Notes under the pieces: generated by a model
Databases searched by the model: none
What the model was told of the DNA's origin: nothing
Seen by the model: the letters and a program-made list of their open reading frames with translations, nothing else
Translations under genes and position numbers: made by a program
In this document: piece after piece, positions 24,731 to 31,360 of the stretch
How positions within the stretch are numbered: position 1 is the stretch's first letter
Layout of the letters: every line of letters starts with the position of its first letter
Source: Trueperaceae bacterium
Lineage (GTDB): Bacteria; Deinococcota; Deinococci; Deinococcales; Trueperaceae
Assembly: GCA_040905465.1 (NCBI GenBank)
Contig: JBBDRK010000036.1
Span: forward strand, 59,375 to 123,374
Direction of reading: 5' to 3'
DNA length: 64,000 nucleotides

Positions 24731-26227
24731 CTAAACAGCGCCTGCGTCCGGCTGCCGCTGGTCGTTCTCGACCCGCCGCCGCAGCGCCAGCGTGCCCCCG
24801 CGGAACGAATAGGCCTCGTAACCCAACTGTTGCAGCACCTCGGCGGCGTGAGCGCTTTGCATGCCGTGGGCGCAGTACAGGACGTAGCTTCGCCCCTTGT
24901 CGAGACTGCGAGGAGACCGCACCAGTTCGGCCGGGTCGCGGTGCAGCGAGCCGGGCAGGTGCCAGGCGCGGCGGTGGTGCTCGCTCTGGCAATCGAGCAC
25001 CACGGCGGCGTCCGGAATCGAGTCGACGAACAGGTAGGGCAGCATCAGGTCGGACGGCTCCAGGGCACGTAGCTTGAGCTCCCGTGCCCTGTCCACGGCG
25101 CGGGTCGCCAACTGCCCATCGAGCCGGCTCTCCTGCCGGTCCACTACGTCCGGATCGGCTGCGACCACCGGTCGACCGGAGGCGATGGCGCAATACTCGT
25201 GCACGCGAGCCGACAGCACCTCGGTGCCCACCAGCTCCGCCTGCTTCATGATCTCGCGCTTGTCCACTCCCACCAGTGGTCGGAGCACGGGCAGTCCGGA
25301 GGCGCCCTCGATCACTCGCAGGTTCGTGAGCGTCTGCGACGACACCTGGCCTATCGACTCGCCGGTTACCAGCGCCTCGCACGCCAGCCGCCCGGCCAGC
25401 TGCGACGCGGCTCGGTACATGAGGCGCTTGAGCAGAACCTGCCAGTAGTCCTCGCGAGCGTTGGCGCGCAGGTCGTCCAGCGCGGGAGCGAAGTCGACGA
25501 CGTAAAGGCTCGGCCGCGCCCCGTGACACCACCTGTCTGCGAGGAGCTTCACGACCTGGGCAACCATCCGCTCGTATGCTGCGCCACCGAGGTTGAACAA
25601 CACGAATTCCAGCTCCACCCCGCGCCTTAGCACCTGCCACGACGCCACCGCCGAATCGTAGCCCCCAGAGATCAGGGCCAGCGCCCGCGATTCGGTGCCC
25701 GCCGGCAGGCCACCCGGCCCCGGCAGCCGAGCCTCGAACAGGTACGCCCGGTCGTTTAACACCTCCACCCGCACCTCGAACTCCGGGGTGTCGAGATCGA
25801 CCGGCCCATAACGGACGAGCGCGGCGCCGAGCTCCCTGGCCACGTCCATCGAGGAGAAGGCGTGCTGGCCAAGCCGTTTGGCCCGCACCGCGAAGCTGCG
25901 TCCCGCGATCAGATGGGCGAAGGCGGCGTGACCGGCCTCGGCTATCGCAGCGGGATCGGCGGTGCAGGTGGCGCGCACCGGCGAATACGTGCCGACCCCG
26001 AAGACCCGGCCGAGGGCTTCCTCTGCGACCTCCAGCGGTCCCTCCTCGATATACACGAAGAGCCTGCTGGGCCTGCGGCGCACCCGGCACCGCAAGCCGT
26101 TGCGCTGAAGCGCGTCCTGAACCGAACTCCGCAACGCTCTCATGAAGCGCTCCCGAGTGCGCTTAGACTTCAGCGTCACCTCGGCGGCGGGCCGGACGAC
26201 TATCAGGCGCTCAAACAGATCGGCCAT
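24731..26227 (-). CDS. thiI: tRNA 4-thiouridine synthase ThiI (THUMP + PP-loop + rhodanese)
   Basis: EVTLKS, RVFGV, GPGGLP, LISGGYDSAVA, TGESIGQVSSQTLTNL, RPLV, EYC, rhodanese LYCAHG. Confidence 0.95.
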   Translation of the reverse strand: MADLFERLIVVRPAAEVTLKSKRTRERFMRALRSSVQDALQRNGLRCRVRRRPSRLFVYIEEGPLEVAEEALGRVFGVGTYSPVRATCTADPAAIAEAGHAAFAHLIAGRSFAVRAKRLGQHAFSSMDVARELGAALVRYGPVDLDTPEFEVRVEVLNDRAYLFEARLPGPGGLPAGTESRALALISGGYDSAVASWQVLRRGVELEFVLFNLGGAAYERMVAQVVKLLADRWCHGARPSLYVVDFAPALDDLRANAREDYWQVLLKRLMYRAASQLAGRLACEALVTGESIGQVSSQTLTNLRVIEGASGLPVLRPLVGVDKREIMKQAELVGTEVLSARVHEYCAIASGRPVVAADPDVVDRQESRLDGQLATRAVDRARELKLRALEPSDLMLPYLFVDSIPDAAVVLDCQSEHHRRAWHLPGSLHRDPAELVRSPRSLDKGRSYVLYCAHGMQSAHAAEVLQQLGYEAYSFRGGTLALRRRVENDQRQPDAGAV

Positions 26228-26298
26228 CGCCTCACGATACGGCGTCGCGCACCGTCGCGCTGTCGGCCGCGTCCGAGGTCAGAGCGGTGAACTCACGG

Positions 26299-26427
26299 CG
26301 ACACTGTCAATGCGACATGTCAAGGCAACTCGGTAAAGGCGACTGGGTCAAGTCGACTGGGGTTACGGCGACTGGGTCACGACCACGACAGGGTCAAGCC
26401 GACTGGGTCAAGCCGACTGGGTCACGG
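26299..26427. repeat. Tandem array of about 9 copies of a ~14-bp unit (consensus CGACTGGGTCAAGN)
   Basis: cgacactgtcaatg / cgacatgtcaagg / caactcggtaaagg / cgactgggtcaagt / cgactggggttacgg / cgactgggtcacgac / ca / cgacagggtcaagc / cgactgggtcaagc / cgactgggtcacgg. Confidence 0.85.
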
Positions 26428-27510
26428 TGCCTGGCCGGGGAGCAGAAGCGGGCCGTCCATGCCAGGCAATACCGTAAACCCATCGAACTGAGTCACCAGC
26501 GACCCGGCGGCCTCGCCGACCTGCACGTCCGACTGCCGGCCCGCGGGGAGGTAGATGAGGAGGTGTCCCGGACCTATCTCGGCGTTTCGGTAGTGGTTGC
26601 CGTTCACGAACACCACCAGGTCAGCAGGACCGGCGTCGTACTCGAGCTCCAGCCGGACGATCTGGCCACGTGCCTCGCTGGCGCTCACGCCGGCAATCGT
26701 CAACGACGAGCGCGGCATGCTTCCGTCGGCGCGCCAACTCCCGGTCTCCGGTGTGATCCAGCCGCCGTCCTGAATCACATAGTGACCGGCGTCGTCCAGT
26801 GCCGTGGCCATGACCAACTGCTGCGCTTCGCTGCTGTCGGTGTGCAGTACCAGTTCGCTCGTGCCGGGCTCCAGCGTGAGGACCTCGCCGGTGGTGCCGG
26901 CCAGCCGTGGCAGCACCGTGAGCCTGGTGGGCACCTCCAGCAGGACGTTGAGCTCGAATCCGCCGCGCGGCTCACGGTTCACCGTGGCACGTCGCAGCGT
27001 CCGGGGCAGACGGCCGAACACCTGAGCCACCAGCGTCTCGCCCCCGGCTCCTGTCGCCACTCCGAATCCGACATGGGTGTAGCCGGTATGCAGGAGCGCC
27101 GCGCGATGTCCCGGGCTCTCCAGCCAGCCCTGGACCGCCGCCGTAGCCACGTCCTGGGGTCCCCGCAACAGTGCCAGGTTCTCGCCGGCCGTCACGCTGG
27201 GCACACCGGCGCGAGCCAGTCGGCGCGAAAGCGAGGAGCTTTCGGGGCTGGGGCTGCTGTGTGAGAAGTAGGCGAGGTTTGCCATCTCGATGGCGTGGGC
27301 GCGCGCCGCTCGCGCCAGCCCTTCGTCGTGGCCGAGGGGCGGCAGGCCATGCCGGGCTCTGGCTTCGTTAGTGGTCACGAGCAACGCAGCTTCCGCTGGC
27401 CCACTGCTTGGTGGGTCGGTCACAACCGGAAGACCGTTGGCGGCGGCGACCGACAGGAACAAGAGCAGAACGACGAGGCGGGCCACGAGGCAGTGTACGG
27501 CCGGCTCCAT
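26422..27510 (-). CDS. Secreted CAP (SCP-like) domain protein with C-terminal beta domains
   Basis: Signal peptide, TNEARARHGLPPL, AARAHA, YFSH, GENLA, WLESPGHRAALL, HVGFG. Confidence 0.88.
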   Translation of the reverse strand: MEPAVHCLVARLVVLLLFLSVAAANGLPVVTDPPSSGPAEAALLVTTNEARARHGLPPLGHDEGLARAARAHAIEMANLAYFSHSSPSPESSSLSRRLARAGVPSVTAGENLALLRGPQDVATAAVQGWLESPGHRAALLHTGYTHVGFGVATGAGGETLVAQVFGRLPRTLRRATVNREPRGGFELNVLLEVPTRLTVLPRLAGTTGEVLTLEPGTSELVLHTDSSEAQQLVMATALDDAGHYVIQDGGWITPETGSWRADGSMPRSSLTIAGVSASEARGQIVRLELEYDAGPADLVVFVNGNHYRNAEIGPGHLLIYLPAGRQSDVQVGEAAGSLVTQFDGFTVLPGMDGPLLLPGQAP

Positions 27511-27587
27511 GGGGCGCAGCGAGAGGTATTTCGCGTCGGCCGCGCAAACCCGCCCCGATGTGCGGCGCCCGTCGTCGCGTTGCGCTC

Positions 27588-27617
27588 TTGACAGCCGGGG
27601 TCCCGCCCCACTATCGT
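27588..27617 (+). promoter_or_regulatory. Sigma-70-type promoter upstream of the leader ORF and RIO kinase 1
   Basis: TTGACA 27588-27593, 18 nt spacer, TATCGT 27612-27617. Confidence 0.65.
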
Positions 27618-27647
27618 TGCCGCAACCTCAGGAAAGGTGGTGGTGTC

Positions 27648-27725
27648 ATGGGCATCCCGAAGATTGTCTTCTTACGTTTCGACAGGCACGCGCGCCTTTC
27701 CGTACCGTCCAACCCTCACAACTGA
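27648..27725 (+). CDS. Putative leader peptide MGIPKIVFLRFDRHARLSVPSNPHN (25 aa)
   Basis: AGGAAAGGTGGTG RBS, ATG about 30 nt after the -10 box, within a structured 5' leader. Confidence 0.55.
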   Translation: MGIPKIVFLRFDRHARLSVPSNPHN

Positions 27726-27839
27726 CGGCCGAGCCGAACTGCTCGATCTGAAAGGCGGCGCCCCGCATCGGGGCGAGTGGCCCGATCTGTCGCGGCCTCC
27801 GCGTGTCCCCCTGCCCGACCCATTCATCGGAGGACACGC

Positions 27840-28703
27840 TTGAAGCGAGTTGATTACGAGTTCGGCGACAGCGAGGAACGCTTCGCCCGCCGCAAGGACC
27901 GGCGCGTTCCGCGCGGGCACGTCCGGAAAAACGACCTGCTGGTCGACGAGGAGTACGCCGTTGCCAGCGGCCGGCGATTCACCGATCCCGAGTTGCAGCA
28001 CCTCTACGAGCGACGCAAGATCGACGAGTTGCTCGGCGAGGTCAAGGGCGGAAAGGAGGCGACCGTATACCTGGTCAGTGGCCCCGAGGGTCTCATGGCG
28101 GCCAAGGTCTATGCCGACCTGCGAGTGCGCGCGTTTCGAAACGACGGCGTCTACCGCAACGGGCGCTGGATCGGCGACCCACGCATCGAGAAGGCGATCA
28201 GTCAGCGTAGCGCTCAGGGGCTCGCGGCTCAGCAGGACCTGTGGGTACTGCACGAGTACGTTCAGTTGTGGGAGCTCCACGACGCGGGGTTGCCGGTGCC
28301 GAAGCCGATGATCGGACCGGACAAGGTGGACCTGGCCGACGCCGGTCGGGTAGTCCTGATGGAATACGTCGGCGATGACAGCGGCCCTGCCCCGCGACTG
28401 TCCGACGTTCGCCTCGAGGCGGCCGAGGCGCGAGCTGCGTTCGCGCAGAGCGTCGAAATCGCCGCCTCGCTGAATGCGCTGGGAAAGGTGCACGGCGACC
28501 TGTCGACCTACAACCTGCTTTGGTGGCAGGAAAAGGTGGTGGTTATCGACTTTCCGCAGATGGTAGACCTGACCGAAAACCCCGACGCGCTGAAACTGCT
28601 CGAGCGCGATGTCGTCAACCTGTGCCGGACGTTCCGGTCCCTGGGTATCGACGCCGACGCCAGACATACCCTCGACACGGTTCGACGCGAAGGTGCCGGA
28701 TGA
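27840..28703 (+). CDS. RIO1 family atypical protein kinase (copy 1)
   Basis: GGKEATVY, AAKVY, VLMEY, APRL, VHGDLSTYNLL, IDFPQ, LLERDV; GGAGGA RBS before TTG 27840. Confidence 0.92.
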   Translation: MKRVDYEFGDSEERFARRKDRRVPRGHVRKNDLLVDEEYAVASGRRFTDPELQHLYERRKIDELLGEVKGGKEATVYLVSGPEGLMAAKVYADLRVRAFRNDGVYRNGRWIGDPRIEKAISQRSAQGLAAQQDLWVLHEYVQLWELHDAGLPVPKPMIGPDKVDLADAGRVVLMEYVGDDSGPAPRLSDVRLEAAEARAAFAQSVEIAASLNALGKVHGDLSTYNLLWWQEKVVVIDFPQMVDLTENPDALKLLERDVVNLCRTFRSLGIDADARHTLDTVRREGAG

Positions 28704-28806: not shown

Positions 28807-29274
28807 ATGGTGAAGACGATGAGCGACAGAGCTGAACGCAAGTACAACCAGGAGGAGCGGGACCTGTTGATGGACGCCGCAGCCACGGTACTGTTGGCCA
28901 CCGTAGCTGCGGATCGTTCGGGACCGGTAGAGTACTTCGCCGAGATGACGGCCGCCGGAACATTCCTATACGAGGCTCGGGGCCGTTACCGGGACAACGC
29001 CTTGGTGCAGGAGCTCTACGGGCGCCAGGAGGAGAATGGCACGGCGCCGGAGCCCGAGAGCGTTACCCAGGAGACGCTCCTGAGCAACATCGACAGGGTC
29101 TCCGGGCTGCTGAGACGAGACCGGGAAGGAATCGAGTTCCGGCGCTTCCTGCTCGAGCTGGCGGAACGGGTGGCGAAGGCGTCGAGAACCGGCTGGTTCG
29201 GTCCCCGCGTTTCGGCAGAGGAAGAAAAGTTCCTGGCCGACTTGCGACACCGGCTGGGCCTGCCGGAGCAGTGA
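28807..29274 (+). CDS. Hypothetical helical protein
   Basis: Clean ORF between the two kinases (FRRFLLELAERVAKAS, VSAEE); start may be 28819. Confidence 0.75.
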   Translation: MVKTMSDRAERKYNQEERDLLMDAAATVLLATVAADRSGPVEYFAEMTAAGTFLYEARGRYRDNALVQELYGRQEENGTAPEPESVTQETLLSNIDRVSGLLRRDREGIEFRRFLLELAERVAKASRTGWFGPRVSAEEEKFLADLRHRLGLPEQ

Positions 29275-29323
29275 AGGGCAACTGCCCCACCTGCCGCCCG
29301 CCTGGCGGAGCCTATACTGCGGC

Positions 29324-30196
29324 GTGAGCGACGACGACTTCGACGGTAGCGAGGAGCGCTTCGGTGGCCGCAAGGACCGCCGGCGTCCCAAACGTGGCCG
29401 GCAGCGCAGTGAGTTGGTCGGCACCGGCGAGGCCGGCGACCGCTCCGACTTCGCCGACGCGGGACTTAGCGCGCTCCATGCCCAGGGAGCCCTGGTGTCG
29501 CTGGGGCGTCAGGTCCGCGGCGGCAAGGAAGCCACCGTCTACCGGGCCGAGGGTCCGGAGGGCCCGCTGGCGGCAAAGGTCTACAGCGACGACGAGGTGC
29601 GAGGCTTCCAGGCCGACAAGGCGTACCTGGAGGGTCGCCGGGTGTCCGACCGGCGAGTACGCAAGATGCTCGGCGACGCGCGCCGTCGGGGACTGAGCCC
29701 GCGACTCGCTCACTGGGTCTTTCACGAGTACGTGATGCTATGGCGACTGTTCGAGGCCGGCTTCACGGTGCCGCGGCCGGCGGTAGGTCCGGAAGCGGAC
29801 CGGCTGGTTGCGGCCGGCCGGGTAGTGCTGATGGAGTGGATCGGCGACGACGAGCCGGCCCCGCGCCTGGCGGACACTCAGCTGGACCCCGCCGAAGCGG
29901 AAGCGGCATGGGCACAGTCACGAGGTCTCCTCTTGGATCTGCTGAAGGAGGGACTGGTTCACGGCGACCTTTCTACCTTCAATCTTCTCTGGTGGCGGGA
30001 AGGGATCGTGCTGATCGATCTGCCGCAGACGGTCGAGTTCGAGCGTAACCAGCACGCGGCCGAGCTCCTCGAACGCGACGCTCGCTCGCTGTGCTCTTCG
30101 TTCCGCTCGTTCGGCATACAGCAGGACCCGGTACAGCTCCTCCTCGACGTTCGGCTGGCGGCCGGTCTGCCGCCGTCCGGTCCGCTGACCCGCTGA
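29324..30196 (+). CDS. RIO1 family atypical protein kinase (copy 2)
   Basis: GGKEATVY, AAKVY, VLMEW, APRL, VHGDLSTFNLL, IDLPQ, LLERDA; TATACT 5 nt before the GTG. Confidence 0.92.
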   Translation: MSDDDFDGSEERFGGRKDRRRPKRGRQRSELVGTGEAGDRSDFADAGLSALHAQGALVSLGRQVRGGKEATVYRAEGPEGPLAAKVYSDDEVRGFQADKAYLEGRRVSDRRVRKMLGDARRRGLSPRLAHWVFHEYVMLWRLFEAGFTVPRPAVGPEADRLVAAGRVVLMEWIGDDEPAPRLADTQLDPAEAEAAWAQSRGLLLDLLKEGLVHGDLSTFNLLWWREGIVLIDLPQTVEFERNQHAAELLERDARSLCSSFRSFGIQQDPVQLLLDVRLAAGLPPSGPLTR

Positions 30197-30274
30197 GGAG
30201 GGCCGCCGGTCCTCCAGAGACGATTGTCGTTGCGGTTGCGTCTCTCCCGCTTGACTCCACCTACGCTATGTCCC

Positions 30275-31360
30275 ATGGTTAGCGAACCGAGGGCGGGGAT
30301 TCGAGAAGCAGGACTTCGCTATGTGAGCGACGACAGAACCGGCATCAGCCGACGGCGACGCGGCAAGGGCTTCAGCTATCACCGTTCGGATGGAGAGCTC
30401 ATTCGCGATCCCGACGAGCGCCGGCGGATCGATGGCCTGGCGATCCCGCCTGCATATCGCGACGTCTGGATCTGCCCGGATGCGCGCGGCCACCTGCAGG
30501 CCACGGGCAGGGACGACAAGGGGCGCAAGCAGTACATCTATCATCCACAGTGGCAGGTGTTGCGCGGTCGGAACAAATTCGAACATCTGCTCACTTTTGC
30601 CGAGGTATTGCCTGGCATCCGCCACCGGGTACAGCGTGACCTCGGCCGCGAGGGGATGTCACGCGAGAAGGTGCTGGCCGCGGTGGTGACCCTGCTGGAA
30701 TCGACGCTGGCCAGGGTCGGCAATACCTCTTATGCCCGCGACAACGGTTCCTACGGGCTCACGACCATCCGCAAGAGACACGTGGAGGTCGATGAGAATG
30801 CCGTGGTGTTCGAGTTTCAGGGCAAGGGCGGCCAGGAATGGCGGGTGCAGACGGACGACGAGCGGATCGCGGAGGTAGTGCGGCAGTGCGTCGAGATCCC
30901 GGGTTACGAGCTTTTCAAGTATTTCGACGACCAGGGCACGAAGCGCGACGTCGACTCCGGAGATGTGAACGACTATCTGCGCGAACTTGCCGGGAAGGAG
31001 ATCACTGCCAAGGACTTCCGGACCTGGGCGGGCACAGTGCTGTGCGCCGAAGCGCTCTGCGAACAACCGTTCGCGAGCGACAGCCAGGCGCGCAAGAACG
31101 TCGTGGCGGCGGTGAAGAGGGTTGCCGGCACGCTCGGCAACACCCCCAGTGTGTGCCGTGAGAGCTATGTGCATCCCGTCGTGATCGAGACCTATCTGGA
31201 GGGTGCGCTGGTCGAGTCGCTGCGAACCGAGGCGCCTCGGAAGATAGCGGCGGCCGATGAGCAGGCGCTCTCCGGCAACGGCAAGGCCGGCGGACGATTG
31301 CTCCGCGGGATCGAGGCGGGAGTCCTGCGGTTGCTCGGCCTGCGGGCCGGGAACAGTTGA
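30275..31360 (+). CDS. topIB: Bacterial DNA topoisomerase IB
   Basis: LAIPPAY, GHLQATGRDDKGRKQYIYH, RVGN, SYGLTT, FQGKGG, AKDFRTW, LGNTPSVCRESYVHP (catalytic Tyr). Confidence 0.95.
   Translation: MVSEPRAGIREAGLRYVSDDRTGISRRRRGKGFSYHRSDGELIRDPDERRRIDGLAIPPAYRDVWICPDARGHLQATGRDDKGRKQYIYHPQWQVLRGRNKFEHLLTFAEVLPGIRHRVQRDLGREGMSREKVLAAVVTLLESTLARVGNTSYARDNGSYGLTTIRKRHVEVDENAVVFEFQGKGGQEWRVQTDDERIAEVVRQCVEIPGYELFKYFDDQGTKRDVDSGDVNDYLRELAGKEITAKDFRTWAGTVLCAEALCEQPFASDSQARKNVVAAVKRVAGTLGNTPSVCRESYVHPVVIETYLEGALVESLRTEAPRKIAAADEQALSGNGKAGGRLLRGIEAGVLRLLGLRAGNS

Follow-up and report, generated by a model that had tools for sequence, protein, structure and literature searches.

A conserved upstream reading frame with alternative RNA pairings ahead of a RIO kinase gene in Trueperaceae

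The gene for a RIO-family kinase in a Trueperaceae bacterium is preceded by a conserved leader, very probably regulatory, in which a short upstream open reading frame (uORF) with an extreme Shine-Dalgarno sequence (SD) is separated by a spacer from the kinase ribosome binding site (RBS). Judged by sequence comparison, the conserved core of this leader is RNA and not peptide, with the C-rich 3' part of the uORF predicted to pair with either its own SD or the spacer. We estimate at slightly better than even that the leader acts as an erm-like, peptide-independent sensor of early ribosome stalling, with the kinase gene ON when a ribosome stalls early in the uORF. No description of a bacterial RIO leader or of its regulation was found in the literature searched, the coverage of which stopped short of subscription journals and bioRxiv supplements.

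The window, a 64,000-nt stretch of DNA, carries the kinase gene (287 aa) at positions 27840–28703 of the + strand. The protein contains the motifs HGDLSTYN and IDF, which we take to be the catalytic loop and the metal-binding motif of a RIO kinase, and matches PF01163 (RIO1) with an E-value of 2e-31 and 109.4 bits against a curated cut-off of 22. It also aligns with solved Rio1 structures in the PDB (E = 2.5e-15), which together with the Pfam match bears out the identification of the gene in a preliminary description of this DNA. Its NF041645 score of 150.9 bits lies under the cut-off of 350, and the NF041310 cut-off was not reached either.

All features of the leader lie on the + strand. A sigma70-type promoter spans 27588–27617 (−35 TTGACA at 27588–27593, an 18-nt spacer, −10 TATCGT at 27612–27617) and is the sole promoter-like site within 2 kb, where shuffled sequences would be expected to yield 0.1. 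Segment 1, the extended SD of the uORF (27630–27647), has a predicted energy of −17.9 kcal/mol against the 16S tail. The uORF itself (27648–27725, ATG at 27648) consists of 25 codons and a TGA; its position and SD are conserved and its peptide is not. Within it, C-rich segment 2 (27685–27701, codons 13–18) is complementary both to segment 1 and to two spacer strands, segments 3a and 3b. Segment 3a (27750–27757) is a near-copy of the uORF SD and the perfect complement of 27693–27700, while segment 3b (27800–27808) is an anti-RBS strand that could pair with 27832–27839 (OFF) or with 27685–27692 (ON). Segment 4 (27829–27842) comprises the kinase RBS, with GGAGG at 27829–27833, and the TTG start at 27840, 114 nt beyond the uORF stop. 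The promoter, uORF RBS, 25-codon uORF, 114-nt gap and TTG start of the preliminary description were all confirmed. Three of the four pairings it listed are perfect Watson-Crick helices; that of 27685–27692 with 27800–27807, also given as a pairing, includes one G-U.

The SD of the uORF is among the 22 strongest of the 69,844 ATGs in this genome, and one as strong precedes just two of 2017 called ATG genes (median −6.5 kcal/mol). The 16S tail used for these energies was read and confirmed in four family genomes. Taken alone, the window would prove nothing, since the leader as a whole folds no better than shuffled sequences (z = −0.17) and belongs to no Rfam family, with no covariance model reaching its gathering score in the window and none matching 27500–27900 at E-values up to 5. 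The window's own SD:uORF duplex was likewise borderline by itself (p = 0.065). No intrinsic terminator was present on the + strand at the window leader, and no run of control codons for a single amino acid, as in trp- or his-type attenuators, was seen in the window or in the family leaders. A second clear combination of promoter, long SD and self-masked uORF was absent from this genome among those listed of 108 candidates obtained with a rough gene caller. Separately, a 19-codon frame containing Tyr and Pro codons, with a strong SD, was observed on the + strand of G000:C29 at about 8226, 113 nt before a 343-aa gene that presumably encodes a DAHP synthase; it is a possible candidate for an aromatic amino-acid attenuator.

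That the leader is more than chance is argued from its conservation. RIO matches were present in 103 of 128 family genomes, and the queries used gave none in the ten genomes of genus g27 or the eight of family f3. From 105 fetched loci, 106 hits were examined, a best-hit-weighted part of the listed matches, with one further hit lacking a usable start left out; the named records among the family loci are labelled Trueperaceae. The layout was scored as present where an ATG whose SD is at least as strong as −13 kcal/mol opens a frame of 10–55 codons ahead of the kinase. It was found ahead of 82 of the 106 hits (81 distinct leaders), as against 593 of all 69,844 ATGs in this genome with such an SD. 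The 24 hits without it include second copies, the window's paralogue among them, and one leader with a GTG start that the rule missed. In a held-out test the layout was present in all 21 new loci (seven from f4 and 14 from f2), the other nine of the 30 returned loci being f1 loci already used. It was also present in 20 of 32 distant, mostly Chloroflexota loci. Family f2, one genus of which accounts for 77 genomes in the phylum sample, appears to be Deinococcaceae. Lack of uORF conservation, named in the preliminary description as part of what would refute its proposal, was not observed for position and SD. One leader, L013/L120 from G034, a genome marked unpublished, is one of the 81, served as a representative in the specificity tests below and is one of the 24 pattern matches that follow; no claim hangs on it alone.

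A strict pattern joining promoter and SD matched 24 times in the 128 family genomes, 22 of them ahead of a RIO gene, and a reversed-pattern control gave no match. The two matches elsewhere were set aside as ordinary gene starts. In the family leaders the −10 box often reads CATACT.

The conservation extends to the pairings. The uORFs carry C-rich codons that match their own RBS as complements, and this complementarity exceeded dinucleotide shuffles (p < 0.05) in 30 of the 81 leaders, 11 of the 21 held-out leaders and 13 of the 20 distant ones. Across 27 diverged representatives the 1:2 pairing was leader-specific (self −22.4 against cross −18.5 kcal/mol, permutation p = 5e-5), with a null post-stop control (p = 0.48). 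The 2:3 pairing was also leader-specific (−24.8 against −21.3, p = 1e-4, control p = 0.32) in the 22 leaders that remained once uncertain starts (three leaders) and short gaps (two) had been excluded; leader by leader, p fell below 0.05 in 19 of 68 and z was negative in 55 of 68. The 3:4 pairing between spacer and kinase RBS was less clearly leader-specific (p = 2e-4, with a control p of 0.017), and in only 12 of the 22 leaders do the spacer strands of 2:3 and 3:4 overlap. Because relatives are not independent, these p-values overstate the significance. Segment 2 holds its distance from the uORF stop (21.7 ± 6.9 nt) more tightly than that from the start (48.8 ± 25.1 nt; 76 of 81 leaders). In group alignments 2:3 replaced 1:2 once the SD was blocked, in g1, g23 and g35/4, and both options of segment 3b are kept in the same-genus relative L002. 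Mutually exclusive helices, including one that would hide the downstream RBS, were thus found in the window and its genus; family-wide, 2:3 is specific and 3:4 moderately so. Covariation in homologous leaders, which the preliminary description had proposed to look for, did not rise above shuffles within the g29 group, where the helices are nearly invariant.

The kinase start codons are unusual. Among RIO starts led by GGAGG, picked by a rule that ignores codon identity, 64 of 66 were TTG (47) or CTG (17); the figure for this genome as a whole is 83 of 536. TTG or CTG also opens the kinase in 20 of the 22 representatives and in all eight leader-less copies. These starts, the extreme SD and the SD:uORF helix as the conserved core were missed in the preliminary description. 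As a near-cognate start codon, UUG is disfavoured only mildly. Control of the infC type works via a weak start codon; to our knowledge it has never been shown for a RIO gene. Unlike infC-type control, f2 and Chloroflexota orthologues often use AUG, the f2 starts comprising seven ATG, five TTG and two GTG of 14 and those of Chloroflexota being mixed. Most kinases behind the g29-type leaders (L067, L012, L068, L069, L070, L072, L073, L022 and L082) start at CTG.

The stretch downstream of the uORF also differs between lineages. Terminator-like hairpins occur in three of the 81 leaders but were flagged in 19 of the 20 long-SD distant leaders, mostly from Chloroflexota. By eye, the f4 leaders L166–L170, L172 and L174 carry a GC-rich hairpin with a U-rich tail after the uORF stop, the 5' arm of which looks complementary to uORF segment 2; the f4 RIO frames have long N-terminal extensions. 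Spacers of genus g2 (L007, L056, L048 and L050) were seen to contain a second SD and ATG inside a small hairpin, a possible second uORF.

Switching was assessed in folding models. For nascent RNA of the window up to 27750, the probability of the 1:2 helix was about 1, and with segment 1 blocked that of 27693–27700 with 27750–27757 was 0.97–0.99. Folding from 27692 or later, which represents a ribosome at codon 10 or beyond, gave a 3:4 probability of 0.98–0.99 with all three 3' ends tried. This value dropped to 0.11–0.61 when folding began at 27683 (ribosome near codon 7), and was 0.41–0.92 for a ribosome at codons 1–4 and 0.59–0.98 for naked RNA, a result that swings with the chosen 3' end. 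Once the spacer has been made the alternative helices are near-equal in energy, and the RBS of naked RNA, with an opening energy of 7.9, was more open than that of the codon-7 state (9.7). It is a robust prediction of the model that read-through locks the kinase RBS hairpin in the window, with the gene OFF, whereas the modelled ON state is a shift and not a clean flip. Across 72 leaders, the RBS had a median opening energy of 10.3 with the ribosome at codon 1 and of 10.9 with it at the stop. The codon-1 value was the lower by over 1 in 29 leaders and the higher in 16, a weak and inconsistent trend. Folding with and without uORF masking, as the preliminary description had advised, thus revealed a dependence on ribosome position in the window and little of it in the wider set.

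The favoured reading is a four-segment ribosome-mediated attenuator that would read ribosome movement and not peptide. The long SD would catch a 30S subunit cotranscriptionally, at a point when segment 2 has yet to be made. Normal elongation would then strip segment 2, allowing 3:4 to form and leaving the weak UUG start unused, and the untranslated kinase RNA would be terminated by Rho or degraded (OFF). A ribosome held at the start or within about the first eight codons, proposed to result from translation inhibitors, cold or faulty subunits, would make segment 1 unavailable, leaving segment 2 to pair with segment 3 and the RBS to open (ON). On ribosome-free RNA, 1:2 would be the first helix to form and would favour 3:4. 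Other lineages would keep segments 1 and 2 and swap the output, for terminator-like hairpins in Chloroflexota and f4 or for a start near the stop in f2. In ermCL-ermC, four segments alternate between 1:2 with 3:4 (OFF) and 2:3 (ON), the downstream RBS is hidden by default and segment 1 consists of uORF codons. The RIO leader likewise places a short uORF, equipped with an RBS, ahead of the gene it would regulate, and has four segments with the same proposed OFF and ON pairings and an RBS predicted to be hidden by default, but its segment 1 is the uORF's own SD, and it has no conserved arrest peptide and no known drug specificity. The element would work like an erm-type four-segment attenuator and falls outside that class on the arrest peptide.

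Published Deinococcus data are in line with attenuation. In D. deserti the gene of the RIO-like kinase Deide_19990 opens with TTG, and its transcript has been mapped to begin at −171 (PMC4007540). That position collected 4771 reads without irradiation and 12412 after it, compared with 334 and 697, respectively, over the gene; the product carries no mark of proteome detection. The start-to-gene ratio calculated from those data is 14–18, compared with 0.04–2.5 for 17 hand-paired leadered genes (2.4 for the attenuated tyrS), and one of about 200 rows compared had a higher start-site total (PMC4007540). This profile is attenuation-like, as attenuation predicts, the leader being known here from its start site and read counts (PMC4007540); main-text passages of that paper contain no mention of RIO. 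A 171-nt leader fits the f2 geometry of about 25 nt, 41–45 codons and 15–18 nt. In D. radiodurans, DR2209 mRNA is reported to fall 21-fold in an oxyR mutant, together with those of an RNA helicase, VacB, LigT and DR1263 (PMC2225504), which lends weak and indirect support to RNA-level control common with RNA-stress genes.

Four other explanations were weighed against this reading. The main one, rather unlikely in our estimate, is Rho-site masking as described for the Sinorhizobium meliloti duf1127(1) leader (PMC12218461): segment 2 and the spacer would form a C-rich Rho loading site that lies open once an elongating ribosome has passed (OFF) and is covered by a stalled ribosome or, when no ribosome loads, by the 1:2 helix, so that the gene would also be ON when ribosomes are scarce. 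The first 110 nt after the ATG contain more C than G in 65 of 71 leaders, against 567 of 1310 control intergenic stretches, with the window's uORF in the top 0.5% for this skew; rho is present, and C-rich leaders with rho fit a Rho-based output, as do the scarcity of terminator-like hairpins among the 81 leaders, the D. deserti read ratio and the duf1127 precedent itself. The C excess is, however, partly forced by complementarity to the G-rich SD, the leader-specific 2:3 pairing and the RBS hairpin are left unexplained, and the C-rich element is tied to the stop here whereas it occupies codons 3–10 in duf1127 (PMC12218461). Rho may instead be a downstream output of the favoured attenuator and no alternative to it. 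Translational coupling of the opposite sign, in which ribosomes at the uORF end open the kinase start or reinitiate and more kinase is made when the uORF is read through or when termination and recycling are slow, is unlikely. In the g29 group the last uORF codons pair with the kinase RBS in nine of nine sequences (7 bp, 96.8% of cells), which suggests the opposite regulatory sign there; opening energy was lowest at codon 13 in several leaders (L067, L072, L073, L022 and L012), the f2 kinase starts only 12–18 nt past the uORF stop, and the E. coli toiL-topAI leader uses direct uORF:RBS pairing (PMC12121999). The window's uORF, on the other hand, does not pair with the kinase RBS and leaves a gap of 114 nt before the kinase start, read-through there is predicted to lock 3:4, and direct uORF:RBS masking did not hold as a general rule (p = 0.09).

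It is quite improbable that there is no switch at all, the gene being constitutively damped by the long SD as a ribosome sink, the hairpin and the weak start, or the uORF being a small protein gene co-transcribed with the kinase. The unremarkable overall folding, the 24 hits without the layout and the weak equilibrium switching would suit such a gene; a segment with two mutually exclusive, leader-specific pairings of near-equal energy would not, nor would lineage-specific output modules on a common front end or a peptide that is not conserved. Sensing of the ErmCL kind, with the nascent peptide stalling in response to a specific drug or metabolite, is very improbable. The preliminary description had likened the peptide start MGIPKIVFL to MGIFSIFVI of ErmCL, which agrees in the first three residues, while allowing for coincidence, and the uORFs are rich in Arg, Ala, Thr and Pro. 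The peptides are nevertheless unrelated across the 81 leaders, including that of the same-genus relative, so the resemblance is best put down to chance: none of the homologous peptides begins MGI, no conserved nascent-peptide arrest motif or common residue pattern was found across the 81 leaders or even within the genus, and lengths range from 14 to 52 codons, the L071 and L065 uORFs differing by a 10-codon in-frame insertion. The abundance of Arg, Ala, Thr and Pro follows from the C-rich anti-SD codons. Of the attenuator put forward in the preliminary description, a conserved leader with exclusive helices able to hide the kinase RBS stands, and the likeness to ErmCL does not. Its induction by stalling is a hypothesis, and the output may be other than purely translational, given the C-rich leaders, the presence of rho and the terminator-like hairpins of other lineages.

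The favoured attenuator can be set beside three further systems. In the duf1127(1) leader, proposed to sense translation inhibition and ribosome availability, C-rich uORF codons also pair with their own RBS when ribosome-free and RNA matters over peptide, and the element is presumed to be a Rho site (PMC12218461). The RIO element is tied to the uORF stop, some 22 nt ahead of it, and can pair with the spacer as well. It would feed an RBS hairpin in Trueperaceae and terminator-like hairpins in Chloroflexota and f4, and its target is a RIO kinase. The toiL-topAI system is a broad sensor uORF with translational repression followed by Rho termination, and stalling at the start codon can induce it (PMC12121999); the counterparts of these traits in the RIO leader are proposed ones, and direct pairing with the downstream RBS is found only in g29, the window relaying through its spacer. 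The whiB7/wblC uORF attenuator responds to many ribosome-targeting drugs and to starvation (PMC12121999) but regulates transcription of a regulator, whereas the RIO leader precedes a kinase.

A bolder and rather unlikely interpretation is that the mRNA gauges the quality of small subunits in two stages. Its extra-long SD would probe the 3' end of the 16S rRNA and whether the 30S subunit can leave the start site; its conserved UUG or CUG start would probe scrutiny by IF3, a property lost in immature 30S subunits. Kinase synthesis would then coincide exactly with the entry of faulty 30S subunits into translation, bacterial RIO would be a feedback-controlled 30S quality-control ATPase like eukaryotic Rio1, and a self-masked front end with swapped outputs would be common to Deinococcota and Chloroflexota. 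This interpretation is motivated, by a link of our own, by loss of start-codon scrutiny in immature E. coli 30S subunits (PMC6868393) and by yeast Rio1, which has ATPase/kinase activity on small-subunit precursors and inspects the 18S 3' end (PMC11045238). In the manner of infC-type control and of the scrutiny lost by immature 30S subunits (PMC6868393), IF3 or 30S quality could be read out by a good SD followed by a conserved non-AUG start.

The neighbourhood of the gene gives no functional clue, since the next genes are unrelated in 20 RIO loci. No uORF precedes a second RIO paralogue (PF01163) at 29313–30196 (+), the GTG of which follows the end of a TATACT box by 5 nt, suggestive of a leaderless mRNA. 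In a quick tree, which shows only the clustering of leader-less copies, this paralogue groups with such copies in G001 and G002. A 155-aa ORF (28807–29274, +) with no Pfam or NCBIfam match separates the two RIO genes, and a similar sequence precedes RIO copies in L002, L016 and L024. The stretches 24731–27510 (−) and 30224–31360 (+) flank the pair with a divergent CAP-domain gene, then a ThiI gene with THUMP and rhodanese domains, and, downstream of the pair, a type IB topoisomerase; none of these three was conserved around RIO in the relatives checked.

The leader adds a peptide-independent design to the known attenuators, one in which the uORF's own SD serves as segment 1 and the output module varies by lineage. 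It would link the RIO kinase to ribosome trouble, with the gene probably OFF unless ribosomes stick early. For a poorly understood bacterial kinase, conserved control by a leader that senses ribosomes would point directly to function: a leader reporter offers a cheap readout, and whatever turns it on would show when the kinase is needed. Orthologues are at hand in genetically tractable Deinococcus as DR2209 and Deide_19990.
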